Source of the DNA: a virus
Strand: one strand, 5' to 3'
DNA: 64,000 bases
IMG/VR virus record: IMGVR_UViG_2927124413_000004
Location: 4,417-68,416 of that record
In this document: piece by piece, positions 4,151 to 49,164 of the stretch
How positions within the stretch are numbered: position 1 is the stretch's first letter
How the letters are laid out: each line of letters starts with the position of its first letter
Made by a program: the position numbers and the translations under genes
The notes under the pieces: model-generated
Databases searched by the model: none
What the model was told of the DNA's origin: nothing
What the model saw: the letters and a program-made list of their open reading frames with translations, nothing else

Positions 4151-4433
4151 CCCCGCGGGTCACTTCAAATTCCTCCGGGTGTGGTCAGTCAAATTCCTCC
4201 ACCCGCGAGGCAGGACAAGGGACTGTTAGTTTGAGTTTGTTTCCCGGGCAAGAGCTTCAGCGGCTTCTTTGAGCCGATAGCTGCGTCCGTCGAACTCAAG
4301 CAGATGGCAATGATGCATAAGTGTGTTTCGGCATGGAATAAGGACCCCGTTTTCGGGGTGATCGGCATCCAATCGGGACCCCGGGATAAGGGTCCACAGT
4401 GGCTTCCATCGAGTCATGGAAGCCGAGGTTGGG

Positions 4434-5933
4434 ATGCTGGTGGTGGAGACGATTGGTAAGATCCGTCGCGCCTACTTTGTTGATGGTCGTCCGATCAAGG
4501 CGATCTGCCGAGAACTTGGCGTATCGCGGAAGGTGGTTCGCAAGGTCATTCGTTCTCAAGCGACGGAGTTCCGGTACGAGCGCGAGACGCAGCCGCTCCC
4601 GAAGATGGGTGCCTGGAGTGCCGAGCTTGATCGGTTGCTGGCAGGGAATGAGAGCAAGGCGGCGCGGGAACGGCTGACGCTGATCCGGCTATTCGAGGAG
4701 CTTCGCGGCCTGGGTTATGCCGGCGGCTATGATGCGGTTCGTCGATACGCACGACGGTGGAGCAAGGAACGCGGCACCTCGACAGCGTCGGCTTATGTGC
4801 CGCTGAGCTTTGCACCCGGCGAAGCCTACCAGTTCGACTGGAGCCACGAGGTCGTCCTGCTGAGCGGCACCACGGTGATGGTGAAGGCTGCTCATGTCCG
4901 GCTCTGTCACAGCCGCATGCTGTTCGTGCGGGCCTATCCGCGGGAGACGCAGGAGATGGTGTTCGACGCCCACGACCGGGCATTCGCCTTGTTCAAAGGC
5001 ACCTGCACCCGCGGCATCTACGACAACATGAAGACCGCGGTGGAGACGATCTTTGTCGGTAAAGGCCGTCTCTACAATCGCCGCTTCCTGCAGATGTGCA
5101 GCCACTATCTGGTCGATCCGGTCGCCTGTACGCCAGCGTCGGGCTGGGAGAAGGGGCAAGTCGAGAACCAGGTCGGGCTGGTCCGGGAACGCTTCTTCAC
5201 GCCGCGGCTGCGGTTCAAAACCCTCGACGAGTTAAACGCCTGGCTGCTCGACAAATGCATCGCCTACGCCAAGGCTCATCGCCATCCGGAGCTGACCGAT
5301 CAGACGATCTGGGACGTGTTCGAAGCCGAACGCCCCAAACTCGTTCCCTATGCCGGCCGCTTCGACGGCTTCCATGCGGTGACGGCATCGGTCTCGAAGA
5401 CCTGCCTGGTGCGCTTCGACAACAACAAGTACTCGGTCGCAGCCAGCGCAGTCGGACGACCGGTCGAGGTTCAAGCCTATGCCGATCGCATCGTGATCCG
5501 TCAGGATGGACGTATCGTTGCCGAGCACCCGCGATCATTCGGTCGCGGCGAGACGGTCTACGACCCTTGGCACTATGTGCCCGTGCTGGTGCGCAAGCCC
5601 GGTGCCTTGCGTAATGGCGCTCCCTTCAAGGACTGGGTGCTGCCCGCAGCGATTGAGCGTGTACGGCGCAAACTCGCCGGTGCCGACGATGGCAATCGAC
5701 AGATGGTCGACATCCTCAATGCGGTGCTGACAGACGGATTGCCCGCGGTGGAAGCCGCCTGCGCCGAGGCGGTCGCTCATGGCGTTCATTCCGCCGATGT
5801 CGTTCTCAATATCCTGGCCCGTCAACGTGAACCCGCCTCACCGGCCAACATCATGACGCCGGCCGCACTGACGCTCCGTCATGCACCGATCGCCGATTGT
5901 GCCCGCTACGACAACCTCCGGAGGACCATCTGA
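4434..5933 (+). CDS. istA: IS21 transposase IstA
   Basis: N-terminal HTH; [13 protein letters not shown] and [11 protein letters not shown] motifs. Confidence 0.96.
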
Positions 5934-6796
5934 TGGAACGAACCCAAATCTTCGACCTCATGGGCGAACTCAAGCTCTACGGCATGAAGGCTGCCTTCGA
6001 CGAGATCATGGCAACTGCCGTTAAGCGCCAGCACGAACCTCAGCGCATTGTCGGCGACCTGCTCAACGCCGAGATCAACGAGAAGCAAGCCAGGTCGATC
6101 AAATACCAGCTAACCATTGCCAAGCTGCCGCTCGCCAAGGACATCGCCGACTTCCAGTTCGACGGCACGCCGATCAATCAGACTCTCGTCAATGATCTCG
6201 CTGACGGCGGCTTCATCGCCCAACAACGCAACGTCGTGCTGGTTGGCGGCACCGGTACAGGCAAAACACACCTGGCCATTGCCGTCGCCAGAAGTTGCAT
6301 CCGCAATGGCGCTAGAGGACGCTTCTACAACGTCGTCGACCTCGTCAACCGGCTCGAGACCGAAACCCGCAACGGTCGGCAGGGACGGCTCGCCGAGCAT
6401 CTGACCCGCATGGACTTCATCGTCCTCGACGAGCTGGGCTATCTGCCGTTCGCGCAATCCGGCGGTCAGCTCTTGTTCCATCTCATCAGTCGGCTCTACG
6501 AGCGCACCTCAGTCATTGTCACCACAAATCTTGCGTTCGGCGAATGGCCGAGCGTGTTCGGCGATGCCAAAATGACCACCGCGCTACTCGACCGATTGAC
6601 CCATCACTGCGACATCGTCGAGACCGGCAACGACAGCTGGCGATTCAAAAGCCGCGACGATGTTCAAACAACCCGCGCTCGCGCCGTCTCCGCAACCCCG
6701 ACCAGCTCCGACGACCCGAGCGCTACCAGCAGAGCACGCCGATCAAAGGGGTCCCTTTTGGAGGCCGATAGGGGGTCCCAGTCAAACGCCGATTGA
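5933..6796 (+). CDS. istB: IS21 helper ATPase IstB
   Basis: GGTGTGKT Walker A, IVLDELGY Walker B, LLDRLTHH. Confidence 0.96.
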
Positions 6797-6963
6797 CAGA
6801 TGTCGCTTCAAGACGTTCAACTCCCCGGCCCCTTGCTGGCTAAAGGGGTCGAACATAAACGTCCTGCCTGACCGGCTACTGCTGTTCAGCGGCGCTGACG
6901 GCGATCATCAGGTGGGGGAGTTTCAAGTGACCATACCCGGGGGATTTTGACCGACCCACGGGG

Positions 6964-7772
6964 GGTTCAACCCACGTCGCCTTCGGCTTCCTGATGGCTT
7001 TGGTGAGCTTTGACTTGGGGCTGACCACCGTGTCGAGCTGCTTCCTAATCTGGCTGGAAACAGTGCGAGACCAGCCTGTTCCGACCTTGCCCATGTAAAC
7101 GAGTTCGTTGCCTTCGTTCTTGCCAAGGTATAGGGCCGCGACACCGCTAGGGTCTTTGACGAACCCGATGACCGGAAACTTGCCCTTGTGAACGGCCTTG
7201 ATCTTCAACCAGTTCTCATTTCGCTCGGACCGATACGGCGCATCTGCTCGTTTGGAAATAATGCCTTCCCAATTCAGCTTGGCCGCATGCTCAAACATCT
7301 TCTGCCCATCGCCGACGAGATGCTCGGAAAACAGCACCGGCAGCTCGATGTCGTTTTCGCCGAGCAGGTCTAACAAGAGCTGTTTCCGCTCGATCTGCGG
7401 CAGCCTGCGGAGGTCGCCATTGCGCCAGAGAATATCGAATGCATAGTAGATGAGGCGGCCCTGCCTGCCCGCAGCCAGCTCTGCCTGAAGCTCAGAGAAG
7501 TTGGTACGCCCTTCGTGGACGACCACTACCTCGCCGTCGATGATGGCCTCGCCTTGGATTGCCAGCGCACCCGCAATCTCGGTGAAGCGCTTGGTCCAGT
7601 CCAGCCCCGTGCGGGTGAAGACTTTCTTCCTTCCCCGGTTGAGATGGACCTGAATGCGGTAGCCGTCGTACTTGATCTCATGAAGCCACTGGTCGCCCTT
7701 CGGCGCCCTGGACTTCAATGTTGCAAGCTGGGGCTTAATGAACCCCGGCATGGTTTGAATATGCTTCGTCAA
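6964..7772 (-). pseudogene. ATP-dependent DNA ligase (stand-alone LigD/LigC-type ligase domain), interrupted by IS
   Basis: HEIKYDGYR adenylation motif, IIDGEVV, YYAFDIL, WEGIISK, WLKIK. Reading frame runs into the IS end after TWVEP. Confidence 0.9.
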
Positions 7773-13188: not shown

Positions 13189-13489
13189 CGGTCAGTCTCC
13201 TGTTTGCAACCCCATTGGCAGCGGCGTCGACCGCTTCGATCACACCGCTGATCATGCCGTTGCGAAAGGTTTCCACGGCAGCGGCGGTACCGCGCGACAC
13301 CTGTGCATTCTCGATCAACAGCATCGGCAACAGAGTGATGGCGCATTGCCAGTTGTCGATCATCTCTTCGCTTTGTGGGTTCTTGCCGATCACGCGACAC
13401 CACCACGGGCATTTGTGGCAGACTTTGGAGACGTCCACTTTGTGCAGCGGACAGATCGTGCCTTGCTCGGCGTGCGGAATTTGCGCCAT
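13163..13489 (-). CDS. Cys-rich phage protein adjacent to the tail fibre
   Basis: CPL..VCHKCPWW..W.CAITLLPMLLIEN, a motif I recognise from fibre-adjacent phage genes. Confidence 0.6.
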   Translation of the reverse strand: MAQIPHAEQGTICPLHKVDVSKVCHKCPWWCRVIGKNPQSEEMIDNWQCAITLLPMLLIENAQVSRGTAAAVETFRNGMISGVIEAVDAAANGVANRRLTDARLNSRP

Positions 13490-14586
13490 CAGGTTTTACT
13501 CGCGATGATGATGTCGATGTACTGCATCGCCATGGTGATCGGATGATTGTGGCCAGCGCCGCTGACGTTGTTGACGGCGGTGTTGATGTTCTGGACGCCC
13601 TGATGATAGCCAATGTCCCCCAGATTGGCGTACGGGCAACCCATCATGTAAAGATTAGTCGCACCGGTCTGGAATTGCTGAGCAGCGTACCCCCCGGACA
13701 CACCAGTGAGATGATAGCCGGAATTGTTGTGCGGATAGACCGTAATAGTGTTGCTGCCACTGCAGGTTTGCCCGGCGGGAATCTCAGCGAGCGATAGCGT
13801 GTGATAGCCGACGTTGGTCTGCGCCATCACCGTCGAGAAGGTATTGGTGCCGCCTGCACCGCCGCCGGCACCAGAGACCACCCGCAGCACCTTGTCGTTA
13901 TGCGTCGTGACTTGGGTCCAACCGACCGGCGCGGCGGCCTGATAGAACAACATCCGCGTGCCAGCCGGGAACGAAGTCGGTATAACAACTTCTGACCACG
14001 CCGCCGATTGCCGCGCGTACTGCTTTCCGTCAACAGGCGCTTCCGGCACAGGGCCGGGCGGACCCTGAATGCCTTGAATGCCTTGCGCACCTTGCGGACC
14101 GGTGTCGCCCTTGCTCGCGACGAGCGCCCATTTCCCAGCGGCAAGATCGGTAGCGAAGACGCCAGAGGTGTGACTGACTGCGCAGACGTAGGTCGAGCCA
14201 CCGGTCGTCACCACGCTCTTGGGGCTGACCGTTGTGTATGCCGTAGCTGTTGCCCATGCGACCGGCAGCAGCCATGCTTCAGGACCGACCGGACCAATCG
14301 GACCTTGAATACCTTGAATGCCTTGTGGGCCGGTGGCGCCGGTCTCGCCTTTCGGACCTTGCGGACCAGTGTCGCCTGTATCGCCCTTGTCGCCCTTGTA
14401 TCCGCGCGGACCTTGCGGGCCGACCGGTCCGGGCACGCCCTGCGGACCAATCGGACCTGGAATGCCCTGCGGGCCTTGTCCCGGCACCTCAATCAAGACG
14501 GTGTCATCGGGCTCAGCGGTGATGATTACTGGGGCGATCGGCTCCGCAAACACGTCGATGTTGGTGAGACCGGTGGTATCGGTCAT
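13489..14586 (-). CDS. Collagen-like tail fibre with carbohydrate-binding-like module
   Basis: About 20 GXY triplets; W...TAY...V...G.TY.C..SHTS.....W module; FPAGTRMLFYQAAAPVGWT collar-like motif. Confidence 0.8.
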   Translation of the reverse strand: MTDTTGLTNIDVFAEPIAPVIITAEPDDTVLIEVPGQGPQGIPGPIGPQGVPGPVGPQGPRGYKGDKGDTGDTGPQGPKGETGATGPQGIQGIQGPIGPVGPEAWLLPVAWATATAYTTVSPKSVVTTGGSTYVCAVSHTSGVFATDLAAGKWALVASKGDTGPQGAQGIQGIQGPPGPVPEAPVDGKQYARQSAAWSEVVIPTSFPAGTRMLFYQAAAPVGWTQVTTHNDKVLRVVSGAGGGAGGTNTFSTVMAQTNVGYHTLSLAEIPAGQTCSGSNTITVYPHNNSGYHLTGVSGGYAAQQFQTGATNLYMMGCPYANLGDIGYHQGVQNINTAVNNVSGAGHNHPITMAMQYIDIIIASKT

Positions 14587-30095: not shown

Positions 30096-30746
30096 GAATC
30101 GCATGTAGTGGTACAGCAGCTGCTCGACGGTGTTGCCAGCGACGCCGAGCGCGCCACTACCGGCGCCGCTCTTGGCGGCCGCGGCGGTGACGTCGAAGAA
30201 TTGCACGCGGCTTTCACGGTGTGAGATCGACCGGATCCCGCTCGTCAGCTGCTGCGCGACTTGCGTGCGCGCGGCGCCGACCATGACTGCCAGCGCCTGC
30301 TTCAAGGCCGGCGGGGCTTCGTCGGGCAAATGGTAACCGCCGGAATAGATGACGCGGATCGGCTCCGACCACGGGCCGCCGAAGAATTGCAGTTTGCCGC
30401 TGCGGTTCTCGAGCTCGTAACTGTCCGGATCAATCAGCGCATCGCTCGGCGACGTCACGGTCAGGATGTCTTCATCCTTCACCGGATAATGCGTCAAAAA
30501 GATTCGCCCGTTCTGGGTGTCGAACGGCGGCAGGTCACCGCGCCAGGTTTCCTGCACCTTCTCGTAGGCAAACACCCGATTGCACATCGTGGCGATGACG
30601 TCGGAATACTGCGAGATCCAGAGCTGGAGCATGGCATCGTCGGTGGTGTTGGCCGGATCGATGCCGAGCATCACCTTGAGCTCGTTGAGCGTCGCAAGAT
30701 CGTAGCTCTCGGCCGGCTCCAGCACCTTGACTGTGATGTCGGCCAT
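30087..30746 (-). CDS. Head-tail connector (gp6-like)
   Basis: LATLNELKVML...I..MCNR..., YSGGY..P.EAPPALKQA. Confidence 0.75.
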   Translation of the reverse strand: MADITVKVLEPAESYDLATLNELKVMLGIDPANTTDDAMLQLWISQYSDVIATMCNRVFAYEKVQETWRGDLPPFDTQNGRIFLTHYPVKDEDILTVTSPSDALIDPDSYELENRSGKLQFFGGPWSEPIRVIYSGGYHLPDEAPPALKQALAVMVGAARTQVAQQLTSGIRSISHRESRVQFFDVTAAAAKSGAGSGALGVAGNTVEQLLYHYMRFYV

Positions 30747-32179
30747 CAGCGCGTCTCGATGTTGAATTGCTCGAAGATGCTGCGCAGCCGCAGCGGCTCG
30801 ATCTCGGTGCCGTCGGATAACACCAGCGTCACTGCATAGCCTTCGGGGTCGACCTTCCAGCCGGCGACGGTCAGGCCTGGTAGCCCGCGCTCGCCGCGCG
30901 CGCCCGGATCACCCTTCGGCCCCGGCTTACCAGGACGGCCAGCAGATGCGATCAGCTGCCAGCCGTCCCCAGGGCAAGGACCGGGAGCATCGTGCCGTGC
31001 CATGAAACTCGAACCGTTCAGCGCGACGATGTTGAAGGCGGCATAGCTCTCGCCATCGCGATAGGTGCCGCGCACCACCGGAGTCGTGGCATCGCGTCCG
31101 CACATGGCCAAAGGCATCCAGTCGCGGTGCGGCGGTTTCTGCGCGGTATCTTTCTTCGCTTGCCAGGTGCCGCCATCGCAGAACACCACATCGCCGTGAT
31201 AGGACACGTCGTCTTCGCTCCAGGCGCGGACGATCGGCAGCGCGCCGGTTTCGCCCTTCTCGCCGCGCTGGCCTATCGGCCCCGGCTCGCCCTGCGGACC
31301 GGGCTCTCCCTTTTCACCGGGCTTCCCTTGCTCGCCGCGAGGGCCTTGCTGCCCTGGCTCGCCTTTGTCGCCTTTTTCCCCTTGCTCACCTTGTTCGCCT
31401 TGTTCGCCATGTTCGCCTCGCTCTCCTGGTTCGCCCCGCTCGCCCTTCCCGCCCTGCGGTCCGGGTTCACCCCGCTCACCGGGTTCACCTGGTTCGCCCT
31501 GGGGCCCTGGTTCGCCGCGGTCACCGATCTTGCCCGGCTCTCCCGGCTCACCTGCCGGCCCCTGCTCGCCACGCTCACCGGGCTCGCCAACGACACCGGG
31601 AATGCCTTGCTCGCCTTGCTCGCCGGCAGGCCCCGGCTCGCCGCGCTCACCTGCCGGCCCCTGCTCGCCACGCTCACCGGGCTCGCCAACGAAACCGGGA
31701 ATGCCTTGCTCGCCATGCTCGCCGGCAGGCCCCGGCTCGCCGCGCTCACCCGCCGGCCCCTGCTCGCCACGCTCACCGGGCTCGCCAACGACACCGGGAA
31801 TGCCTTGCTCGCCATGCTCACCGGCAGGCCCCGGCTCGCCGCGCTCACCTGCCGGCCCCGGATCACCCTTCTCGCCGACGGCCCCGATCGGCCCAGGCTC
31901 ACCGTCCTTGAGCTCACCAAGCCGGACGCGGACCATCTCCGAAAGCTCGGCACGGCAAGCGACCACCTCGGCCCGCAATCCCGCGATCACCACCTCGGTT
32001 TTCGCGATCGTGGCCTGGGTCTGCGCCGTCATCAGCTCGCGATCGCGCTTCCATTGCTTGCGCTCATCAGCCAGCGCGCGGCCCAGCACCTCGCGCCAGG
32101 CGTCGAGCAGCGTCTCACTCGCTTCCGATTCGATCGGCGGCTCTAAAAAGGTTTCGGACTTCCCGTTGTAGTTCATCAC
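30746..32179 (-). CDS. Collagen-like virion protein
   Basis: Long acidic GXY tract between an N-terminal coiled coil and a C-terminal globular part. Confidence 0.8.
31555..31860. repeat. Three tandem 99-bp (33-aa) repeats inside the collagen-like gene
   Basis: Unit [14 protein letters not shown](H/Q)GEQGIPG(V/F)[10 protein letters not shown], three copies; ends approximate. Confidence 0.85.
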
Positions 32180-36797: not shown

Positions 36798-36995
36798 TTA
36801 CGGCGTCGGCTTCTTACGTAGCGCCTTGGCCTTGACCTGGTGGCGCCTCCGATGCTTCGCTCGGATCGGCGCCATGATCTTCTCGTCGATCGGATAGTCG
36901 ACCGGGTTCAGAATCGCGTTGTGCAGCTCGGCATCCTGCTTGCTGCCGTCGTCATCGGTGTAGAAGAATTCGTTGGCCTCGCGCTTCGGCATCAT
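36798..36995 (-). CDS. Small hypothetical protein (possible cognate inhibitor of the upstream domain)
   Basis: ATGA overlap with the 1076-aa ORF stop. Confidence 0.55.
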   Translation of the reverse strand: MMPKREANEFFYTDDDGSKQDAELHNAILNPVDYPIDEKIMAPIRAKHRRRHQVKAKALRKKPTP

Positions 36996-39900
36996 TTGGC
37001 CTTTCCGACGTAGGCCTTGAACCGCGCCATCGATTCCCGGTCTTTCAGGTTGAGCACGCCGGCCCAGCTCGAATTGAGCAACATCTCCTTGCCGCGCGGA
37101 TGATCGGCGACCTTCCAGATCGATTTCGGATCGCTGGAGTGGATCGCCTGCAGCAGCTCATCTTCCTCGCGCTCCGGCAGCTCCAGCTGTGGCTCTTCAT
37201 CCTCGTCACGCTCGATCTCGATGTCGGCCATGCCGTAGCGGATTGCCTCGCGCAGTTTCTCGTCGTCGTCTTTCTGGTCCCAGTATTCCTCCTGGTACTC
37301 GCTGATGCTGTCGGCCAGGTACTCCGGCGGGTCCATCCGATCGGCCTTGTCCTCGGCCTCTTTGTTGAAGGCGTCGATCAACTCCTTTTGGATCTCGTCG
37401 CGGGCGTCCGCGCTCAGCATCTCGCTCGGTGTCAGCGGCTCGATCCCTGGCAAGGTCTGCTGCGCCGGGTCGTAGCCGGCCGGCGTCATGCGATCGAGCT
37501 CGTCGTCCATGAACTCGATCGACGGATCCTTGGTGCCGTCCCAGCCGCGCTCGTAATCGATCTTGATGGCGCCCAGGATCTCATCGTCGCTGAACGGGAT
37601 GTCCGGTTCGCCCTCGGCAATGCGGTTCTCGCGCCACTCCGCCACCGCGTTCTTGGCCCAGTCGTCCGACGGCCCGACGAAACTGTCGGCAAGCTCGCCC
37701 TTGGCGTCATCGAGCGCTTGGCCGCTCTCGCGCCAGTTCTGCTCCTCGCTGGAGAGAAATTCGCTGTAGCTGTCGTTCATCCAGCGCCGCTTCACGGCGT
37801 CTTGCATGTCCTCACCGAGCATCGACCAATCATCGGCCTCGTAGGTGTCGGTGCCACGGGATGGCGCGCCTCTGCCACCCAGCTTGCGCTCGAGCTCGCC
37901 GCGCAGCTCCGCCCATGACGAGGCTGTCGGCACATAACCGTATTTCGCCCAGGCATAACCGCCGACATCGATGTTGGCGCTGACCTTGAGCTTCTCGAGG
38001 CCGAGCGCCTCGTAAACCTCGACATTGCCGCCGAGCACCTTCTTGCCGATGTTGTGCTTGGTGGTGTTTTTGTTCAGCTTGAAGAAAGCCGAATAGGCGG
38101 ACTTATCGTCCGGCGAGATCTGGCGGTCGTACTCGCCGACGCGGTTGCCGCTGTCATCCAGGATGCCGCCGCCGATGTAGAACGTCGAACCCGACAGGCC
38201 GATGTTCATGGTGGCGTGTTCGAGGCCGCCGAGGAAACTTTTCTTGAACTCCTCCGGCTCGATGCCGATTTTCGCATTCCACTTTTCGACGAACGCCGCT
38301 TCCTCGCTGCTGGTGGCGTTGATCTTGATCTTGGCCTTGTCGAAATCGTCTTTCCTGGCCGGCTTCTTGCTTTTCTTCGGCTTGGCCTCCGCCGCCGGCT
38401 TGTCGGCCGCTGACGTCGCCGAGGATCCACCGCCACCGCCGGAAGTGAATTGTCCACCGGTCGACGTGCCGGCGGGATCGCGTGGATGCTGACTTTCGTC
38501 CCAGCGCTGATGGAATCTATGCTTGAGCAGCTGGAAGCGCTGGGCGTTTAGCTTTTCTTGAGCACCAGCTCGCCGTTGATCTCCTCGAAGTGGCTCCAGT
38601 CCTGCAGCTCTTCCGGCAGCTCCATCTCGAGCTCCGCCGTCCACTCCGGCCGTGGGTTGCCCCAGGCCATGTCGATGTAGCTCTCGCGCGTCACCGGGAC
38701 GCCGGCCTTTTTCATCATCTCGATAACTTCGTCGCTCATGCTTCAATCCTGCCAGCTCGGCGATCGTGGCTTGCGTCTGCCCGAGCGTTACGTTTGCGTC
38801 GTCATGGTACGCGCGCCAGGCGTCCTCGACCGCAGCGGCTTGTTTCTTGCTCAGATTGCCGAATGCTTCCCGTTTAACCACCCAGACCGCTGATTGCAAT
38901 TGCCGCGGCTGGATCCCGAGCTCCTTTGCCGCTTCACGGTAAGCATCGGCATAGACCGGATACAGCCCGCTCGAGCCGGTCTTGATCGAACTGCCGGCGG
39001 CTTCCCAGCCTTCCGGCTTGTCGGCCTTATCGGGCGTCAGGCCGAAATTGTGCAGTACCGGCACCGTCTTGTTGGAGAGCGGCCGCAGCAGCGCGGCGCC
39101 GACGGCGTGGGTGTCGATGGTGACGTCGCCATTGGCGGAATGCGGATCCAGAATATTGTTGTAGAATGAGCGCACCTTATGCGCGGTGCCCATCGCGGCT
39201 GAGATCTGCGCGGTGTCGCCGTTGGCCTCGAGCGCCTTCACCGCATTGGTGATCGAAGCCAACGATTGCCAGACCACCTTGGCGTTGCTGCCGTCCTTGT
39301 TCTTGACGATCGGACCGAGCGCGCCGTTCGGCAGCACGGTGCGGTAGATGGTCGAATTGTGGGTCTCATCGTAGGTCCGGATCCACAGCGCCTTCTCCGC
39401 CGGGCTGGTCAGTTCGCCGAGCGTCTTGCCGCGCACCAGGTCGACCACCGCCTGGTTCTTGTCGGACCACAGCGTCTTGGATTTCTCCTCCATCTTATCG
39501 TCCCAGCGGTGACCCTGCTGCTGCTTGTAAGTCTTCAGCAGCATGTCAGCGATGTGGACGTTCTGATCCCAGTCCTTGGTCGGCGACAGCGCAGCGTAGA
39601 CGCCCGCGATTGAGGCGTCGTTGAAGCCGTAGAGCTCGGCGCGGTCATCGACCAGGGCGCGGGCGCCGTCGTACCAGATCTCGGTGTGGTGGTCCGCGAA
39701 GCCGTAGAGGAATTTCAAATTTTCCTTCAGGTGGTCGACCACCGCGCGAGTCGCATCGTCGGTCGAGCCCTTCAGCTCTTGCGGCCGGAAGTTCGGGTAG
39801 AAATCGGTGTTCTTGAACAGGTTGATGTCATGCTCGTAGCGCTTCGGGTCGAGCTTCATCGAGGCGACGTCGGGCTGCCCGTAGGCGAGCGGCTTGTCCT

Positions 39901-40222
39901 TCGCGGTCGGCTGCCTCGAGCCGATCGTATTCGGATGCTGGCCCTTATTGCCAGGAAGCGGCTTCACGCCGGCGGCCTTGGCCTGCTCGCTGGCGGCGGC
40001 GACATTGGCGTGGGTCTTGGCTTCGACCTTGGCGGTATCGATCGCAGTCCCGGTGCCTCCGCCGTCCGACCCACCGGTATCTACCCAGCGACCGTGCTCG
40101 TCCCTGGGCTGACTGGGATCGAACTTCAGGTAAAGCTCGCCCAACAGCGCCAGCCCGCGCGTATACTGCCGCTGCCACCGATCACGCCGCAGCTCCGCCT
40201 GCTGTCGCTCAATGATCGACAT
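36992..40222 (-). CDS. 1076-aa multidomain head-region protein: HhH-glycosylase-like domain plus GNAT-like domain
   Basis: KFDPSQPRDEHGRW and RWDESQHPRDPAG..GGQFT motifs; WY..A, AALSP..W..N, KVRSFYNN, VTIDTHA, QLQSAVW; IGKKVL...Y..LG...V.ANIDVGGYAWAKYGY. Confidence 0.7.
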   Translation of the reverse strand: MSIIERQQAELRRDRWQRQYTRGLALLGELYLKFDPSQPRDEHGRWVDTGGSDGGGTGTAIDTAKVEAKTHANVAAASEQAKAAGVKPLPGNKGQHPNTIGSRQPTAKDKPLAYGQPDVASMKLDPKRYEHDINLFKNTDFYPNFRPQELKGSTDDATRAVVDHLKENLKFLYGFADHHTEIWYDGARALVDDRAELYGFNDASIAGVYAALSPTKDWDQNVHIADMLLKTYKQQQGHRWDDKMEEKSKTLWSDKNQAVVDLVRGKTLGELTSPAEKALWIRTYDETHNSTIYRTVLPNGALGPIVKNKDGSNAKVVWQSLASITNAVKALEANGDTAQISAAMGTAHKVRSFYNNILDPHSANGDVTIDTHAVGAALLRPLSNKTVPVLHNFGLTPDKADKPEGWEAAGSSIKTGSSGLYPVYADAYREAAKELGIQPRQLQSAVWVVKREAFGNLSKKQAAAVEDAWRAYHDDANVTLGQTQATIAELAGLKHERRSYRDDEKGRRPGDARELHRHGLGQPTAGVDGGARDGAAGRAAGLEPLRGDQRRAGAQEKLNAQRFQLLKHRFHQRWDESQHPRDPAGTSTGGQFTSGGGGGSSATSAADKPAAEAKPKKSKKPARKDDFDKAKIKINATSSEEAAFVEKWNAKIGIEPEEFKKSFLGGLEHATMNIGLSGSTFYIGGGILDDSGNRVGEYDRQISPDDKSAYSAFFKLNKNTTKHNIGKKVLGGNVEVYEALGLEKLKVSANIDVGGYAWAKYGYVPTASSWAELRGELERKLGGRGAPSRGTDTYEADDWSMLGEDMQDAVKRRWMNDSYSEFLSSEEQNWRESGQALDDAKGELADSFVGPSDDWAKNAVAEWRENRIAEGEPDIPFSDDEILGAIKIDYERGWDGTKDPSIEFMDDELDRMTPAGYDPAQQTLPGIEPLTPSEMLSADARDEIQKELIDAFNKEAEDKADRMDPPEYLADSISEYQEEYWDQKDDDEKLREAIRYGMADIEIERDEDEEPQLELPEREEDELLQAIHSSDPKSIWKVADHPRGKEMLLNSSWAGVLNLKDRESMARFKAYVGKAK
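38548..38739 (-). CDS. 63-aa acidic protein overprinted inside the 1076-aa ORF
   Basis: AGGA RBS 7 nt upstream; protein-like sequence, whereas the overlapping frame reads as Arg/Gly-rich shadow sequence. Confidence 0.7.
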   Translation of the reverse strand: MSDEVIEMMKKAGVPVTRESYIDMAWGNPRPEWTAELEMELPEELQDWSHFEEINGELVLKKS

Positions 40223-40679
40223 CGCGCCGCTCCAGCCAATCCAGCCGTTCTAGTTTCTCGTCGATCTGCTGCAGCCGTTGCTCGATCGCTCCGAGTCGCC
40301 GGCCTATCTCGGCTTCGCCGGTCGCGCTGAAATGAAGTTCAATCCAGGCGCCATCGCCGTTGCAGCGATAGATGCCGATCGCAGGCTGATCCAGCACGCG
40401 GTCGCATAGAGCCAGCAGCTTCAGCCGCTCGGAATGCTTCAGCGTGATGCCGGCGTCGAGGAGGACGGTTTTGGTGACGGCGACGCCGTGGGCGCGTCCG
40501 CCTTCGTCGAAGCAGCCGGCTGGACCGTTGCCGAACGATTCGATGGTGCCTTCGCCCTTGATGCAGACGGTGTTGCTTTTGACGCCGCCATCTTCCGGCG
40601 AAAGATCGACGAGCCGCGCGCACGCCAAATCGACAATTGGCGGCTCACCGTGCTCGCAGCGCCATGGCAGAATCGGCAA
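40209..40679 (-). CDS. Hypothetical protein resembling a tail-fibre beta module
   Basis: SNTV.IKGEGTIESFG...ITLKHS..L.L...GDGAW pattern. Confidence 0.5.
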   Translation of the reverse strand: MPILPWRCEHGEPPIVDLACARLVDLSPEDGGVKSNTVCIKGEGTIESFGNGPAGCFDEGGRAHGVAVTKTVLLDAGITLKHSERLKLLALCDRVLDQPAIGIYRCNGDGAWIELHFSATGEAEIGRRLGAIEQRLQQIDEKLERLDWLERRDVDH

Positions 40680-44942: not shown

Positions 44943-47900
44943 CTATCGTAAGCGGCGCCTAATCCTCGCTGCCGTATCTTCTCGGGTCGCTTGGTGATCG
45001 TAGGTTTTGGCTATCACCATCAAAAGCTGCGATGAGACGAACGGATGCGAAGTCTGAAGGGCCAATCCCCACTTGCGATACTTTTCCGCCAGATTACGCT
45101 CTTGGTCGCCGCCTTCGCCGCGCCCGTGAACGCCTCGTGAGTTGTACACGCCAGTATGGGCACCCCGCATCATAGCCTCGGACTGAATGTCCTCCATCAC
45201 ATCGCGCACCGGCTCACACGGCCACACGCCGTCCTTCCCGGTCGGCGCGCCAGACAGCACCTTGCCGACACAGTTATCGGCAATGTCTGCTCGGTCTAGC
45301 TCGGCGCACGATTGGCGTACAGTCGCGAGCCACTTCGCAAGACGTTCAGTCTCCAGTTCCCCAAGGTCGTTGTGACCCGGAATCCTCTCTATGGCTTCGA
45401 GCAACTTGTAGCCGCGCTCAGCCATCGTTGTGACGCGCTCCGGCGGGACTTGGAATTCGGCCGGGTCATTGGCGCCGTCCTTGCGCTTGTACGTCCACGC
45501 GATCGCCTGAACAAAAAGCTCGGGGTGCAATTCGACGTACCGCTCCAGATTAGGGATCCCATAGTGGTTCCGCCTATCCCAACGACGTGCGAGCACCTCG
45601 ATGTAGGCGAACTCAAGACCCGCCTTTTCGTCCATCGTGAGCACGTGGCTACTGTTCAAGTGCTTGAAGCCCTCTTCAATGCTGTGGTGATCGAGCATGT
45701 AGTGACCGGGCTGCTCTTCGCCGCCCAGCGCCATCGCGGACAGCAAATTGAACAGAACCTGCGCGTCAAGCTTGCTGGGTTCATGCCGGATGCACGAAAA
45801 CGCCGCGCGGGGCCGTTTGGCCTTCAACAACCGCTCGACGCTTTCATTGTTCTCTGCATCCGAATTGCGAATCCAATCCGGCGTGACATCGCTCCAATAC
45901 CTGGCATGGGCCACTTCGCTAAGCGCGTCTACCAGCTGCCAGATCCTCTTGCCATACGGCGCAAGAACAAACAGCCGGACGATTTCTTGTTCGGACAATC
46001 CCGCCGCGACGCCACGGAGAACCGCTTCAAGCTTCTCGCTATTTCCTATGAAGCTGTGCAGTGCGCCGCCGATAAGATTCCTGTAGGCGTGAACCTCTTC
46101 CCTGCCTGCGAGGACCGAATCGAGGGCAAGCCGGAGCAATTCTCGAAGTTCTTGCTCGCTCAGCACGAGGGTAGCTAGTATCACTCCGATCATCCATGAT
46201 GCTTTTCCCCGCTTGGAAAGCTCCAGAATCCCGGCAAACCCCCGCTGCTCTATGACTTCGCGTAACGCCTCGGCTCTCAAGCTCTTGATTCGCTCTTCAC
46301 GAGCGTTGTAGTCGTATCTTTCGACATCCTCGATCTCGTCGGCGGATTCTTCGATCCAAGTGTCACGGAAGAGCCACGCATGCTTGTTTAGAAGGTCAAT
46401 CGGCTCGAGCGCCCTATAAGCGGTCTTGCCCGCTGTTGCGAAGCTTGTCGGTTTGCCGCCCTTCTTCGCGCGAACCGCAGCACGCCGCGATAACGTGGCA
46501 ACCCGAATTTTTTCGCGCATTGCGGCCTTATCGCCATCGCTAGCCTTATTCTTTGCCCAATCTTCGATCAAGGTCCAAACGCGGTTCTGATCGGCCTCGA
46601 TGAGACTCTGAAGACGGTCCACCAAGTCGCACAGCATGCTGAGCGAATGGTCTCGCCAGGTGAGAGCCATTTCGATCATCTCACGAACGAACTCGTCAAT
46701 CGGTCCCCGCGTCGAGAATGGTTCGCCGAACCCATATCCGTCGGCACGCCAGCGCGGTTTGTGGCTGTAATCGCCTACTCCGCTATGCGTGCTGAATTGC
46801 GATACGCAAATTTTCCAAGCTACGTCCGGAAATTTTTGCGCCAGCTTCTGCATCAACTCCACCCGCTCTCGATGGCTTGCAGCTGTCTGCGGCATCCAGG
46901 CTCGGAAGATTGATTCCAAAGAGTGCGTCGGCTTGTTGACCCAATTATCGTTGATCTCGACCTGTGCGAGGCGGGCCAGGATGGCGGCGGCGCGCGGCAA
47001 CGTTACCGGGTTCCACGAAAGGCCCTCCAATGCCCACAGGAGACCCGTGCGACTCGGGCTACGCCCGAATACACCTGCATCCGCCGGACGTAGAAGGCCG
47101 AAAACTGCAGGTTCTTTGGACCTGAGATCGCGCTCGATGATCGAAAGGAATTCGTTAGGCGCTGCTTCCGCGTAGGTCGGAAGATCTCTGTCGTGGGCCT
47201 CCAATATCCGCGTGGTCAACGGCGTCGGGAGCAAATCACGCACAACGCGCATCGCCTCAAATTCGGTATCAACGCCGAGATGGCGCTTGAACAAGTTCTC
47301 GCCATGCACAGCCAGCAAGACCAGGGTTTCCGAGATGCCTTCGCGGAAAGCGGCGGAAAATTCGCGCGTCTTTCCATGGAGCGACGCTGCCCAGCGCTGA
47401 TCGTCGTCTAGATCGAGCGCGGGGTCGTCTTCGCCGAGCACCATTCGTGCGATAGCGAAATAGAGGCTTAGGTGTTCAGGCGTCACCGCGCCAGCGATGG
47501 CGTATAGCAGATCAATTTTCGATATCACACCTCTGTAGTGGCCAAGGGACCACATCGGCGCATCGTTCAGCCGAGTAAGGCTCTGACACTCCTTCTCAAG
47601 ATCGTCATAAAGCCTGTCTCCGGCGAGGAGCGATAGACCTAGCTTGTCTGTCTCGTTCTGGCTATTCCACGCACCCACGAAAAGGAAGGGCACGAGGCTC
47701 GCTGCTGTCGGACGGTCCGCCGCCCATTCTGGTGTCCGCACCGCAGGCACCGTCGAAAGTTGACGGCGCAAAACGGTAAGCGACCGGCCGGAAGCGTTCG
47801 TCAGCCGCGAGATCTCATCGCGGTCCTTGCCCATCGCTTCGAGCGCCTTGTTGAAAGTGTCGTAGTTCGCAGGTTCGAGAACAATGTCGGCTTCGGTGGT

Positions 47901-49073
47901 CGCCGCATTGCGCGGGTAAACAACAACGGAGTGCATCGAATTCGCATAGGGGGCGAGTTCGCGCTCGACCTCTCGCGTGAACACGACCGGTATGAAGGTC
48001 TGCGCGCCTGCTGCCAAGCGCGGCAGGACGCCAGGCTTGTCGAACACGAGAACGCTATCTCGGTACGAGGCCAGTTCTTCGCCACCGCGTTCGCCAAGCA
48101 GTTGGGCGAGAAAGGCAAGCGCCTCTTCCGTCGAGTCCGCCGCGACCAAGGTTGGCCGGTCAGCGGGATTCGCCAGGCGCGAGAGCATTGTGCGTTTGGT
48201 CGCCTCGATGGCCGAGCTGAACAGCGCGCCCGTCAAGGGCGGTCTCGAGGCGTCGGCCCAGTCAGCCCAGCACTTGTCTAGCGAACGAACGTGCTGCGCG
48301 GGTATGCCCGCTTCATTGGCGAACCACGCTTGTCCGGGCAGAGACTGCTCCAGCCATTGCTCAAGATCGCTAGCGTCGTATGCGCGAACGTCTTTCCAAA
48401 GTCCTTTTGCCTGTTTTGCTGCAACCCAATCAGCCTTCCCGGGCCAGCGGCGCGGTGTGACGAAAACGAACGTGATCTCCGTGCGCTCCTCCGCACTAAG
48501 GGCCTTAACGCTTTTCTCAAAGTCGCCTTCGGCCTTCGCCTTGGGATTCTCGTTGGTGCCAAATTCCCAGCCGGAGGATCCAGCAGGGACCCAGGGCGTC
48601 CCGTCGCTCGCTTCCGCGATTCCGTCCCATCCAGGACGTTCGGCATCGTCGTTGCCGGGAAAGTCCACCTTAGTCAGCCCACTGCCGGTCGAGTGGACCA
48701 GCGTACGTAAAAAAACTGCCAACCGGCTCCGCGCGGGGATGTTGTGCGCAACCCAACCTTCGATGTCATTGGCCTTGATAGCCAGAAAGGGCGGTACGTA
48801 TGCCTTGGTTTCAGTCGGCGGGTCTATGTGCTTCGCTTGCGCCTCTTCGTACCTCGCTTGCATCGCCATCAGGTCGTTGCGAGGGTAATTGAATGCTTTT
48901 TCTAGGCGCGCTGCCATGTCAGCGGACAAAGCGGCTTTGCCGTTGAGCAGATTCGACAACGCCGGGCGGCCCACACCCATCAACTGGGCGGCTTTCGTGA
49001 CTGACATACCAGGGGGAATAACGTCAGATTTGATGCGGGCTCCCGGATGAGCAGCATCTGCGCGAGCGTCCAT
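44943..49073 (-). CDS. 1376-aa putative anti-phage protein: HigA-type HTH, PD-(D/E)xK-like nuclease, degenerate STAND-like region, helical sensor
   Basis: HPG.RI...MSVT.AA..MGV.R..LS.LLNGKA.LSADMA.RL (HigA antidote HTH); FPG.D...PGWDG...WEFGT...K.KA..D..K; TFVFVTPRRW; VRAYDA.DLEQWL. No canonical Walker A seen. Confidence 0.7.
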   Translation of the reverse strand: MDARADAAHPGARIKSDVIPPGMSVTKAAQLMGVGRPALSNLLNGKAALSADMAARLEKAFNYPRNDLMAMQARYEEAQAKHIDPPTETKAYVPPFLAIKANDIEGWVAHNIPARSRLAVFLRTLVHSTGSGLTKVDFPGNDDAERPGWDGIAEASDGTPWVPAGSSGWEFGTNENPKAKAEGDFEKSVKALSAEERTEITFVFVTPRRWPGKADWVAAKQAKGLWKDVRAYDASDLEQWLEQSLPGQAWFANEAGIPAQHVRSLDKCWADWADASRPPLTGALFSSAIEATKRTMLSRLANPADRPTLVAADSTEEALAFLAQLLGERGGEELASYRDSVLVFDKPGVLPRLAAGAQTFIPVVFTREVERELAPYANSMHSVVVYPRNAATTEADIVLEPANYDTFNKALEAMGKDRDEISRLTNASGRSLTVLRRQLSTVPAVRTPEWAADRPTAASLVPFLFVGAWNSQNETDKLGLSLLAGDRLYDDLEKECQSLTRLNDAPMWSLGHYRGVISKIDLLYAIAGAVTPEHLSLYFAIARMVLGEDDPALDLDDDQRWAASLHGKTREFSAAFREGISETLVLLAVHGENLFKRHLGVDTEFEAMRVVRDLLPTPLTTRILEAHDRDLPTYAEAAPNEFLSIIERDLRSKEPAVFGLLRPADAGVFGRSPSRTGLLWALEGLSWNPVTLPRAAAILARLAQVEINDNWVNKPTHSLESIFRAWMPQTAASHRERVELMQKLAQKFPDVAWKICVSQFSTHSGVGDYSHKPRWRADGYGFGEPFSTRGPIDEFVREMIEMALTWRDHSLSMLCDLVDRLQSLIEADQNRVWTLIEDWAKNKASDGDKAAMREKIRVATLSRRAAVRAKKGGKPTSFATAGKTAYRALEPIDLLNKHAWLFRDTWIEESADEIEDVERYDYNAREERIKSLRAEALREVIEQRGFAGILELSKRGKASWMIGVILATLVLSEQELRELLRLALDSVLAGREEVHAYRNLIGGALHSFIGNSEKLEAVLRGVAAGLSEQEIVRLFVLAPYGKRIWQLVDALSEVAHARYWSDVTPDWIRNSDAENNESVERLLKAKRPRAAFSCIRHEPSKLDAQVLFNLLSAMALGGEEQPGHYMLDHHSIEEGFKHLNSSHVLTMDEKAGLEFAYIEVLARRWDRRNHYGIPNLERYVELHPELFVQAIAWTYKRKDGANDPAEFQVPPERVTTMAERGYKLLEAIERIPGHNDLGELETERLAKWLATVRQSCAELDRADIADNCVGKVLSGAPTGKDGVWPCEPVRDVMEDIQSEAMMRGAHTGVYNSRGVHGRGEGGDQERNLAEKYRKWGLALQTSHPFVSSQLLMVIAKTYDHQATREDTAARIRRRLR

Positions 49074-49164
49074 AAGCAATTCCTCTCAAAGGCGGCCTAG
49101 AATCGGCCGACCGCATCGTGTCGCGCTACACAATACAATCCGCACAGTTGCCTGAAGGAGAGAA

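Follow-up and report, generated by a model that had tools for sequence, protein, structure and literature searches.

A two-cassette protein of the phage head region, with a junction motif in its leaders and a small companion gene for each module

The 64,000-nt window examined here (positions 4,417 to 68,416 of IMG/VR record IMGVR_UViG_2927124413_000004, the term denoting that whole stretch) comes from a provirus and encodes, among its head genes, P0001, a protein of 1076 amino acids (aa). Computation resolves the anatomy and folds of this protein, the mobility of its parts, the motif at its breakpoints, the fusion of its relatives to head proteins and the pairing of its modules with small genes. 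To judge from its homologues, P0001 is made of two independent mobile cassettes, each laid out as a leader of about 45 aa, a Gly-rich linker and a globular domain. Module A is a DUF7178 domain with a fold like that of the helix-hairpin-helix (HhH)-GPD glycosylases, while module B has a GNAT acetyltransferase fold split by an acidic helical domain. Taken as a whole, the explanation preferred here, in which we place somewhat better than even confidence, is that P0001 is a polyvalent head-cargo protein of two plug-in cassettes. The narrower proposal that it is a head-packaged cargo polyprotein appears likely from sequence and gene context.

In the proposed scheme, P0001 would be made late, together with a fusion of an S78 prohead protease and the major capsid protein (MCP) that is encoded two genes downstream, and would be enclosed in the procapsid. 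The prohead protease would then cut it at or beside the leaders, and the freed modules would exit with the DNA at the next infection. In the producing cell, a small companion protein would restrain or escort each enzyme, the product of ORF63 serving module A and that of ORF65 serving module B. We infer from context that the protein is packaged and where it is cut, as well as the activity and targets of each enzyme and what the companions do. The payload may serve host take-over or anti-defence, interbacterial killing or, in the case of module A, the repair of damaged phage DNA on entry.

The division into cassettes emerges from the homologue set, which consists of the best 120 database relatives of P0001 listed. 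BLAST splits these proteins into a set matching aa 33-598 and a set matching aa 568-1076, with only three proteins covering both halves, and the overlap of the two sets is the second copy of a short motif. A reading of this DNA from sequence only (the sequence-only reading) had described a capsid-region polyprotein with two similar motifs, each placed before a flexible linker and a globular domain. The frame is indeed open over its full length and all the strings quoted from it are present; the first motif is KFDPSQPRDEHGRW, and the second, quoted as RWDESQHPRDPAG..GGQFT, occupies aa 573-593 (nt 38444-38506). The limits of the two domains also fall near those proposed. Where a leader is N-terminal, its helix follows the consensus AEAQL..QRFRIARAR..RLLA; the motif after the helix reads [FWY][DN][EP]x[QEK](H)PRDxxG[RK][WF]T, also summarised as [FW]D[EP]SQ(H)PRD..G..[WF], with the variant HPRDPAGxxxGGQF, and is followed by a Gly-rich stretch. 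In linker 2, the predicted local distance difference test (pLDDT) value of the model falls under 50 over aa 594-611. Local alignment of aa 1-70 with aa 531-620 gives a score of 56, compared with 26.8 +/- 5.0 and a maximum of 48 for shuffled sequences (n=500), and the two motifs of P0001 are the only in-gene matches to PR[DNE]x1-9G[RKQ][WFY] in the six frames of the 71.5 kb provirus. The similarity of the two motifs exceeds chance.

The motif coincides with the points at which homology starts and stops. The homology of module A relatives stops at aa 588-598 and that of module B relatives begins at aa 568-574. At the DNA level, homology to prophages of the Bradyrhizobium elkanii type runs from nt 1 of the gene to nt 1794 (aa 598), ending 15 nt beyond the end of motif 2, and homology to locus L005 begins at nt 100, the start of motif 1 (aa 34). 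Copies of the motif stand at the cassette starts of homologues, with one to four copies per protein. On these alignments, the motif marks junctions and mosaic breakpoints. Three other accounts of the motif were considered and rejected. The residues differ both from the Rhs-type DPxGL autoproteolysis motif and from the FlhB-type NPTH site, and recombination driven by long DNA identity was dismissed, as the two copies share a peptide and not long identical DNA.

The occurrence of the motif extends well beyond P0001. An exact-peptide scan of IMG/VR for [QH]PRDEHGRW located 48 loci, with the peptide in frame in 51 open reading frames (ORFs) that are 93-2104 aa long. Among 41 non-redundant motif ORFs, seven contain a MuF domain and four contain portal domains; further ones carry Phage_min_cap2, S78 or XkdF proteases, Zeta toxin, InPase, histidine phosphatase, ART or DUF7178. 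The association of such motifs with MuF-type and other head-associated toxins, stated as known in the sequence-only reading, is thus found in this census. The head domain may stand on either side of the motif. For instance, a portal precedes the motif and a Zeta toxin (L055), a portal-MuF protein or MuF alone precedes the motif and a cargo (L076 and L098, respectively), InPase is followed by the motif and then MuF (L095), and a phosphatase/ChaB part is joined by the motif to an XkdF protease (L077). Proteins with two copies also occur, namely a lambda-type portal followed by motif, segment X, motif and module B (P0073), and a motif followed by module B, motif, segment X and the protease-MCP (P0102). 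Such arrangements make "module junction" a better description of the motif than "N-terminal signal" only. In the preferred explanation, the leader would be the standard junction of S78-protease phages, joining cargo to cargo and cargo to head carriers (portal, MuF or protease-capsid).

The relation between the motif and the protease was followed through the same records. An S78 protease is present in 19 of the 47 motif-bearing records, and in seven of the eight that are at least 90% complete. Five S78-negative records were checked for S78_2/XkdF; three match above the Pfam cut-off and a fourth match is weaker, below the cut-off. No S78_2 match falls in a near-complete record, and the sole near-complete one of the five has neither protease. 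This co-occurrence fits recognition of the motif by that protease clan, the phages recovered by the exact-peptide scan being related and the association therefore not an independent proof; it may just reflect their kinship. A second consideration speaks against a simple protease site as well, namely that the protease-MCP fusion of the provirus has no copy of the motif in a six-frame scan. Since this fusion must itself be processed, the motif is not the general cleavage sequence of the protease. That the S78 protease cuts P0001 near the leaders is accordingly a tentative proposal, held at slightly less than even chances. No relevant paper emerged from a literature search on where prohead proteases cut polyvalent proteins.

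The link of both modules to the phage head is visible in the proteins that contain them. On the same polypeptide as module A or B are found portals (PF06381, PF04860, PF05136), the protease-MCP, ART, ART-PolyVal, Zeta toxin, ATLF, NUDIX, InPase, SLT and LPD domains. Either module can be fused directly upstream of a protease-MCP (P0011, P0012, P0102). Additionally, a DUF7178 gene lies among structural genes in a marine podovirus-like contig, and in L103 a gene composed of leader and module B follows that of a 1159-aa portal. P0001 itself is encoded among the TerS, TerL, protease-MCP and portal genes, and its two unrelated domains are each shuffled with a shared set of partners, both being traits of polyvalent proteins. 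The co-resident domains are typical conflict enzymes, which matches the polyvalent-protein concept (PMC5512222).

Module A belongs to DUF7178 (PF23802), whose Pfam model it matches with 88.9 bits (cut-off 27, E 5.3e-25), a family for which a literature search found no paper. Its model, built on a 62-sequence alignment, has a pLDDT of 95 and a predicted template-modelling score (pTM) of 0.92. A shape search of the ESM Atlas returned a DUF7178 cluster at a template-modelling score (TM) of 0.91 and nothing else. VIA-align places only members of the HhH-GPD superfamily or QNG1 at ranks 1-22, with Z from 8.9 to 4.6 over 155-224 residues, and the next rank has a Z of 3.9. The best match is Thermotoga Ogg (3n0u; Z 8.9, 180 aa, root-mean-square deviation 3.8), while the queuosine-nucleotide glycosylase QNG1/DUF2419 reaches Z 8.7 over 224 aa (7ugk) and Z 8.3 in another entry, with 220-224 residues aligned; AGOG, endonuclease III, MagIII, MutY, OGG1, Mag1, AlkA and ROS1 are also among the matches. 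It is this clean break after rank 22, and not the absolute Z, that argues for a shared HhH-GPD fold. Weaker leads point in the same direction, as HhH-GPD and N-glycosylase entries appear in the AFDB clusters and BFVD, and an Atlas feature search gave sub-threshold leads (0.78) to Ogg-HhH and AGOG clusters. Stand-alone phage forms of about 200 aa are likewise present in the AFDB clusters and BFVD.

Conservation within module A is concentrated in a block, MGTAHKVRSFYNNILDPHSANGDVTIDTHAVGAALL, that is predicted to form a helix-hairpin-helix, a loop and a helix. The 62 sequences, which share 34-87% identity, have about 27 invariant columns, and H348, K349, R351, D366, D370, T371 and H372 are identical in 62 of 62. 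The sequence-only reading had proposed the HhH-GPD fold from AALSP (aa 210-214), KVRSFYNN (aa 349-356), VTIDTHA (aa 367-373) and QLQSAVW (aa 441-447), a guess with which all 22 best structural matches agree, the Asp of VTIDTH probably lying at the canonical position. Bifunctional glycosylase-lyases such as Nth and OGG1 are characterized by a Lys/Asp pair. The pair formed by Lys349 and Asp370 would match this arrangement, and module A is for that reason likely to act on DNA bases. The sole local alignment produced by hhalign places K349 on K120 and D370 on D138 of endonuclease III, at a non-significant E of 0.12-0.28.

Several searches weigh against the glycosylase assignment. Foldseek gave no match of module A in the PDB at E <= 0.001, its top rows being unrelated membrane transporters with TM of about 0.1. 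The models PF00730 (HhH-GPD), PF22175 and PF09171 (Ogg-HhH and AGOG) match nothing in the provirus at E <= 10. Among PDB sequences, neither phmmer with P0001 nor a profile search with module A found anything relevant. Comparison by hhalign was not significant with E. coli Nth, a 7-sequence Nth family or a 14-sequence mixed HhH-GPD set (E 0.11-0.28 overall), nor with 25 Ogg2 proteins (E 0.11). Moreover, a Z of about 9 is modest for a helical protein, and module A can be called HhH-GPD-like by predicted fold only. The model suggests that module A probably works like, and descends from, the HhH-GPD enzymes, of which it is not a proven member, and that it would be a very divergent N-glycosidase of this type, most likely acting on DNA bases. 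Whether it is an active N-glycosidase is, in our estimate from the model, an even bet.

The same data can be read in structural terms. DUF7178 might be a MuF-like minor head protein, whose HhH would bind DNA or the portal and hold or guide the genome end, with module B as a non-catalytic scaffold of GNAT fold and both acting in head assembly or ejection. HhH motifs bind DNA without sequence specificity, and a DUF7178 gene occupies the usual place of MuF, directly after the portal gene, in Roseobacter phage CRP-738; fusion of DUF7178 to the portal C-terminus is also frequent. The absence of MuF foreseen in the sequence-only reading holds for P0001 and, at E <= 10, for the entire provirus (Phage_Mu_F, PF04233), and MuF occurs together with DUF7178, or with module B, in none of the 120 relatives listed. 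The non-canonical acetyl-CoA loop of module B, described below, can be counted in the same sense. Against a structural role, the approximately 27 invariant columns cluster on the HhH-Asp block (HKVRSFYNNI..P..GDVTIDTH) in a pattern resembling an active site, module A also occurs far from head domains, inside giant multi-enzyme proteins, and a dedicated small acidic companion suits an enzyme inhibitor better than a structural brick. A purely structural function is therefore considered improbable, and the enzymatic reading of module A is retained.

Module B (aa 626-1076) was modelled with a pLDDT of 84, and GNAT proteins fill all 50 top matches both in Foldseek (probability about 1.0, best E 9.8e-4) and in VIA-align (Z 8.8-6.6, model residues about 95-490). 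The alignments span both sides of the acidic insert, and the strand and helices that follow the insert would thus complete the GNAT fold. The view of the sequence-only reading, that this domain is GNAT-like and interrupted, is borne out by these matches; IGKKVL and ANIDVGGYAWAKYGY, on which it was founded, lie at aa 725-730 and aa 749-763. Structural matches include TacT2 (Z 7.2), AtaT (Z 6.7) and the anti-CRISPR protein AcrVA5 (Z 6.7). Three groups of residues are invariant throughout the family, namely G726-K727, where helix alpha-3 starts, the block N750-I-D-V-G-G-Y-A-W-A-K-Y-G-Y763 and, near the C-terminus, P1032, K1033, W1036, D1040, G1044 and K1045.

The insert contains 69 Asp and Glu residues against 23 Lys and Arg. 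It had been noticed from the sequence as a long acidic interruption, which stands, although it is not floppy; it is a well-folded helical domain (pLDDT about 90) with conserved Trp, Gln and Arg positions of its own. The homologue P0102 lacks the insert, and the acidic domain occurs without GNAT in P0005, P0006, P0071, P0074 and many profile-search matches, a distribution by which it is an independent domain. An Atlas feature search with the insert returned nothing. In a profile search of 1.84 billion representatives, the module B family comprised 3473 relatives at E <= 1e-3 and 400 at E <= 1e-30, including full, insert-less and insert-only forms, and it has no Pfam model. Less favourable to an active enzyme is the acetyl-CoA pyrophosphate-binding loop between beta-4 and alpha-3, in which H-N-I-G726-K727-K stands in place of Q/RxxGxG/A, so that half of the canonical signature is kept, and only G726 and K727 are invariant; nor does module B match any Pfam acetyltransferase at E <= 0.01. 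A profile search of PDB sequences with module B found nothing. On the strength of the modelled fold, we lean slightly towards module B being an active acyltransferase, whose inserted acidic domain probably engages basic, DNA-binding substrates.

Each module is followed by a small gene. The 63-aa product of ORF63 (MSDEVIEMMKKAGVPVTRESY...ELPEELQDW) has a net charge of about -9, and a homologue stands directly after module A in 23 of the 38 module A loci, across phyla. These loci derive from Alpha-, Beta- and Gammaproteobacteria, Bacteriovoracaceae, Polyangia, Planctomycetes, Verrucomicrobia, Flavobacteriales, Spirochaetes, Actinobacteria and marine phage contigs. In some of them ORF63 is a separate gene that overlaps the DUF7178 stop codon by 1-92 nt, and it is embedded, as in P0001, where the DUF7178 frame reads on. 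ORF63 matches no family of Pfam or PHROG. It is usually overlooked by gene callers, and only seven called homologues are present in a set of 5.8 billion proteins.

Between the window and three Bradyrhizobium prophages, the ORF63 frame keeps 68-79% amino-acid identity. From this comparison, the linker between A and B appears to be an unconstrained stretch held open over a constrained small gene. The same comparison also raises an objection to the polyprotein, as the giant frame over ORF63 is 53-67% identical, versus 58-69% for the third, stop-filled frame. A bias towards G and C at third codon positions (GC3) alone could keep the giant frame free of stops, and the fusion of A to B may not be selected. 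In its full form, this objection states that the 1076-aa polyprotein is not a functional product, the real genes being A (ending near aa 495), ORF63 and B, in a frame kept open by GC3-rich DNA only. It agrees with the fact that the module A gene ends at the equivalent of aa 494-496 in many taxa, where ORF63 is separate with the overlap given above, as well as with the giant frame being no better conserved there than a non-coding one and with the existence of module B cassettes as 600-aa genes of their own (P0021, P0037-P0040). However, in the absence of a stop codon a ribosome that starts at aa 1 must read into B, and for B no start codon (ATG, GTG or TTG) preceded by a ribosome-binding site was identified. 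Furthermore, A is fused in frame to the next cassette, with varied downstream cassettes, in at least 10 homologues (P0003-P0010, P0013, P0014), and also in L019. We rate this explanation as very improbable and keep P0001 as the two-cassette protein.

The companion of module B, ORF65, begins with EFFY..D..LH..IL, has a basic tail and is translationally coupled to P0001. Homologues stand directly downstream of module B in six further loci (L006, L068, L073, L075, L086 and L103), in which module B itself is only 40-56% identical. Some of the homologues are stand-alone proteins of 65-73 aa, and others form the N-terminus of a further protein of motif and cargo. ORF65 has no family in Pfam, PHROG or NCBIfam. 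In L004 and L005, a different C-terminal module is accompanied by a different small ORF of 73 aa. By analogy with toxin and immunity genes, this pairing suggests a picture of cargoes with cognate partners. Whether the companions are inhibitors or escorts of their modules is, to us, evenly balanced.

This arrangement invites the interpretation that the modules are antibacterial and that ORF63 and ORF65 confer immunity, the released particles killing non-immune neighbours to the benefit of lysogens. The anatomy is that of the MuF toxins, for which adjacent immunity ORFs are documented (PMC5576092, PMC11699363), and the small ORF changes with the module, as the 73-aa ORF of L004 and L005 illustrates. 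Partner domains include the classical toxins Zeta, ART and ATLF, and TacT and AtaT are among the structural matches of module B. Nevertheless, the sequence-level evidence is the same as that for an anti-defence or take-over payload, packaging is needed by both, and ORF65-like segments form the N-terminus of further cargo proteins in L006, L068 and L086, which is unusual for an immunity protein. A polymorphic-toxin function is accordingly given a low probability, comparable to that of the structural role, and the broader reading of P0001 as head cargo with companions is preferred.

The features of P0001 and its immediate partners are collected in Table 1.

Table 1. Position of P0001, its parts and associated genes in the window
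Feature	Position (nt)	Strand	Basis or remark
P0001, 1076-aa two-cassette polyvalent head-region protein	36992..40222, stop codon included	-	ORF open throughout; full- and half-length homologues
Leader 1 (aa 1-46), basic amphipathic helix and motif KFDPSQPRDEHGRW (aa 33-46, nt 40085-40126)	40085..40222	-	
Linker 1 (aa 47-84), Gly/Ala/Thr-rich	39971..40084	-	Composition; outside folded model
Module A (aa 85-495), DUF7178, HhH-GPD glycosylase-like fold	38738..39970	-	Pfam, model, VIA-align
A-B linker in the giant frame (aa 496-549), Arg/Gly/Ala-rich, weakly constrained, overprinted by ORF63	38576..38737	-	
Leader 2 (aa 550-593), helix and motif RWDESQHPRDPAGTSTGGQFT (aa 573-593)	38444..38575	-	
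Linker 2 (aa 594-625), Gly/Ser-rich, then Lys-rich	38348..38443	-	pLDDT < 50, composition
Module B, N-terminal GNAT part (aa 626-784), invariant G726, K727, N750..Y763 (NIDVGGYAWAKYGY)	37871..38347	-	
Acidic helical insert (aa 785-1017), net charge -46, isoelectric point 4.05	37172..37870	-	
Module B, C-terminal part (aa 1018-1076), final strand and helices of GNAT	36995..37171	-	
ORF63, acidic companion gene of module A (63 aa), overlapping P0001 in a different frame (aa 495-558)	38548..38739	-	AGGA upstream of ATG
ORF65, 65-aa companion gene of module B, ATG overlapping the P0001 stop (ATGA)	36798..36995	-	
Prohead protease S78 and HK97-type major capsid protein fusion, 765 aa	34476..36773	-	Pfam PF04586, PF05065; phrog_617

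The source provirus is a 71,566-bp IMG/VR record, estimated to be 96% complete, of a myovirus. Its nearest relatives are prophages of Bradyrhizobium elkanii WSM2783 and of Bradyrhizobium sp. BRP22 and SRL28. In the direction of transcription, P0001 is preceded by genes for a 1378-aa giant protein with a HigA-type helix-turn-helix (HTH), TerS, TerL, two small ORFs, a GH25 lysin, an HNH protein and a 156-aa ORF. It is followed by the 65-aa ORF, the 765-aa S78 protease-MCP (the presumed loading and processing partner of P0001), two small ORFs, the portal and a collagen-like fibre, with a tail sheath gene and a CHAP-bearing 893-aa protein further downstream. P0001 receives no functional name from NCBIfam or PHROGs, and no isolated phage matches the region in megablast; relatives of module A are encoded by only three isolated phages, at 32-36% identity. 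The stretch occurs in soil and plant metagenomes and in some isolates, in 11 studies, with no RNA dataset among those listed.

Other features of this neighbourhood were also observed. The position of the portal gene 3' of the capsid gene is an unusual order, and the protease-MCP starts with two N-terminal copies of a Cys-containing repeat, EFMxRCV...W. The gene of the 156-aa ORF (40209-40679, minus strand) overlaps the P0001 start by 14 nt, has no family in Pfam, PHROG or NCBIfam and is kept upstream of the polyvalent gene in L004, L005, L082, L086 and L079 (31-76% identity), its place being taken by a different ORF of 131-136 aa in L006 and L068. Directly upstream of terS, the 1378-aa protein (44943-49079, minus strand) joins an N-terminal HigA-type HTH (TIGR02607) to a long phrog_18693 body. 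Two collagen-repeat proteins (30746-32179 and 13489-14586, minus strand), one of them encoded directly after the portal gene, are probably tail fibres. At the low-coordinate end, a type I HsdM methylase, an IS21-type istA/istB pair and an ATP-dependent DNA ligase are encoded beside the tail genes (182-1723, 4416-6796, 6876-7772). Among the loci of the motif scan, a protein of 200-202 aa with PRDEHGRW at residue 138 and no Pfam family recurs (L056, L062, L064, L066, L069, L083, L087, L089, L090, L097), and a protease-capsid fusion is encoded on the same contigs when these are long enough.

Few model systems have yielded phage-packaged effectors, namely T4 Alt and the internal proteins, P1 Dar, N4 virion RNA polymerase and the MuF toxins, whereas polyvalent proteins are predicted by the thousand. 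A short, widely shared leader motif makes their loading and processing directly testable and, if the activities are true, foreign proteins might be brought into capsids by means of this leader. DUF7178, a virus-only family found in association with many bacterial phyla, gains a glycosylase-like structural assignment with a Lys/Asp pair. The companion families may be inhibitors that are useful as tools, as Ugi is, and, if the activities are true, the modules would represent a new class of early-acting weapons or repair tools in the conflict between phage and host.

The most far-reaching combination of these proposals is a universal plug-in system of head loading in S78 phages, in which the procapsid would take up any domain placed behind the helix-PRDxxG(R/K)(W/F)-Gly leader and the prohead protease would release it, each cargo having an inhibitor gene, and with a glycosylase-lyase and a bait acetyltransferase as the payload. 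The first cargo would represent a new HhH-GPD branch, a DNA glycosylase-lyase delivered by the virion and restrained by an overprinted acidic protein that possibly mimics DNA; the second, an acetyltransferase, would use its acidic, DNA-like domain as a bait for defence or nucleoid proteins that bind DNA, and acetylate their lysines. That all of this holds jointly is unlikely. Polyvalent head-delivered effectors and MuF-type toxins are already known as a general idea. New are the structural assignment of DUF7178, a split GNAT family without a Pfam model and two families of companion genes, one of them overprinted, as well as the leader or junction as a widespread testable element linked to S78-type proteases and mosaic breakpoints.

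When individual modules are compared with known enzymes, module A shares the helical two-lobe fold of endonuclease III, Ogg2 (Tm1821), AGOG, MagIII, MutY and QNG1, and is predicted to have, as they do, an HhH, then a loop and then an Asp at the start of the next helix; a Lys in the second helix of the HhH would correspond to that of bifunctional glycosylase-lyases. It differs in its length of about 410 aa, versus about 210 aa for HhH-GPD enzymes, in the absence of an Fe-S cluster motif and in a long ordered N-terminal arm with beta-hairpin insertions. Unlike those enzymes, it is linked to head proteins, and its genes are confined to viruses and proviruses. Literature searches for HhH-GPD with a portal found nothing relevant, and no report of a DNA glycosylase carried in virions was found in the literature searched. 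Module B shares the GNAT core with the tRNA-acetylating toxins TacT and AtaT and with AcrVA5 and, like such conflict GNATs, is phage-borne with a small adjacent partner gene. It is set apart from them by the 233-aa acidic helical insert between helix alpha-4 and the last strand, a non-canonical CoA loop, the unique invariant NIDVGGYAWAKYGY block, the missing Pfam acetyltransferase match and its tethering to head proteins via the leader.

Polyvalent proteins are predicted to be packaged and injected (Iyer et al. 2017, PMC5512222), and one of them, gp47 of phage phi24B, was found in virions by mass spectrometry (bioRxiv 10.64898/2026.04.10.717836). Like P0001, they combine unrelated enzyme domains in one polypeptide, in a late or structural gene setting of phages with portal and terminase, and the modules of P0001 are likewise shuffled with ART-PolyVal, InPase, NUDIX, lysozyme and LPD domains. 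In that source, no glycosylase-type domain is listed (0 occurrences), the two GNAT families appear in other contexts, and the passages searched describe neither a leader or junction motif nor companion genes for each module. Processing is credited there to zincin metallopeptidases, which are absent at P0001.

The MuF polymorphic toxins (PMC5576092; Bxa, PMC11699363; Apk2) share with P0001 the head-morphogenesis region and the combination of a conserved carrier, a variable C-terminal module and a small ORF that varies with the module. The small cognate ORF after a variable module, typical of these toxins, is represented by ORF65 in seven loci, counting that of P0001 itself. The PRDxxGRW junction motif is common to P0001 and the MuF-containing motif ORFs counted above, and is not mentioned by Jamet 2017 (PMC5576092). 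Unlike the MuF toxins, P0001 has no MuF domain, its only "carrier" being a 32-aa helix, and it holds two tandem cargo modules, with one companion gene overprinted inside the cargo gene.

The closest functional analogy to the leader is offered by the internal proteins and Alt of phage T4 (PMC9026906), in which a short N-terminal leader on head-packed enzymes, a capsid-targeting sequence, is trimmed by the prohead protease gp21 before the enzymes are injected. The two systems have no sequence relation, and they differ in the protease, gp21 versus an S78 enzyme, and in the motif. Unlike that of T4, the leader of the P0001 type is also found internally, between modules and on either side of carriers.

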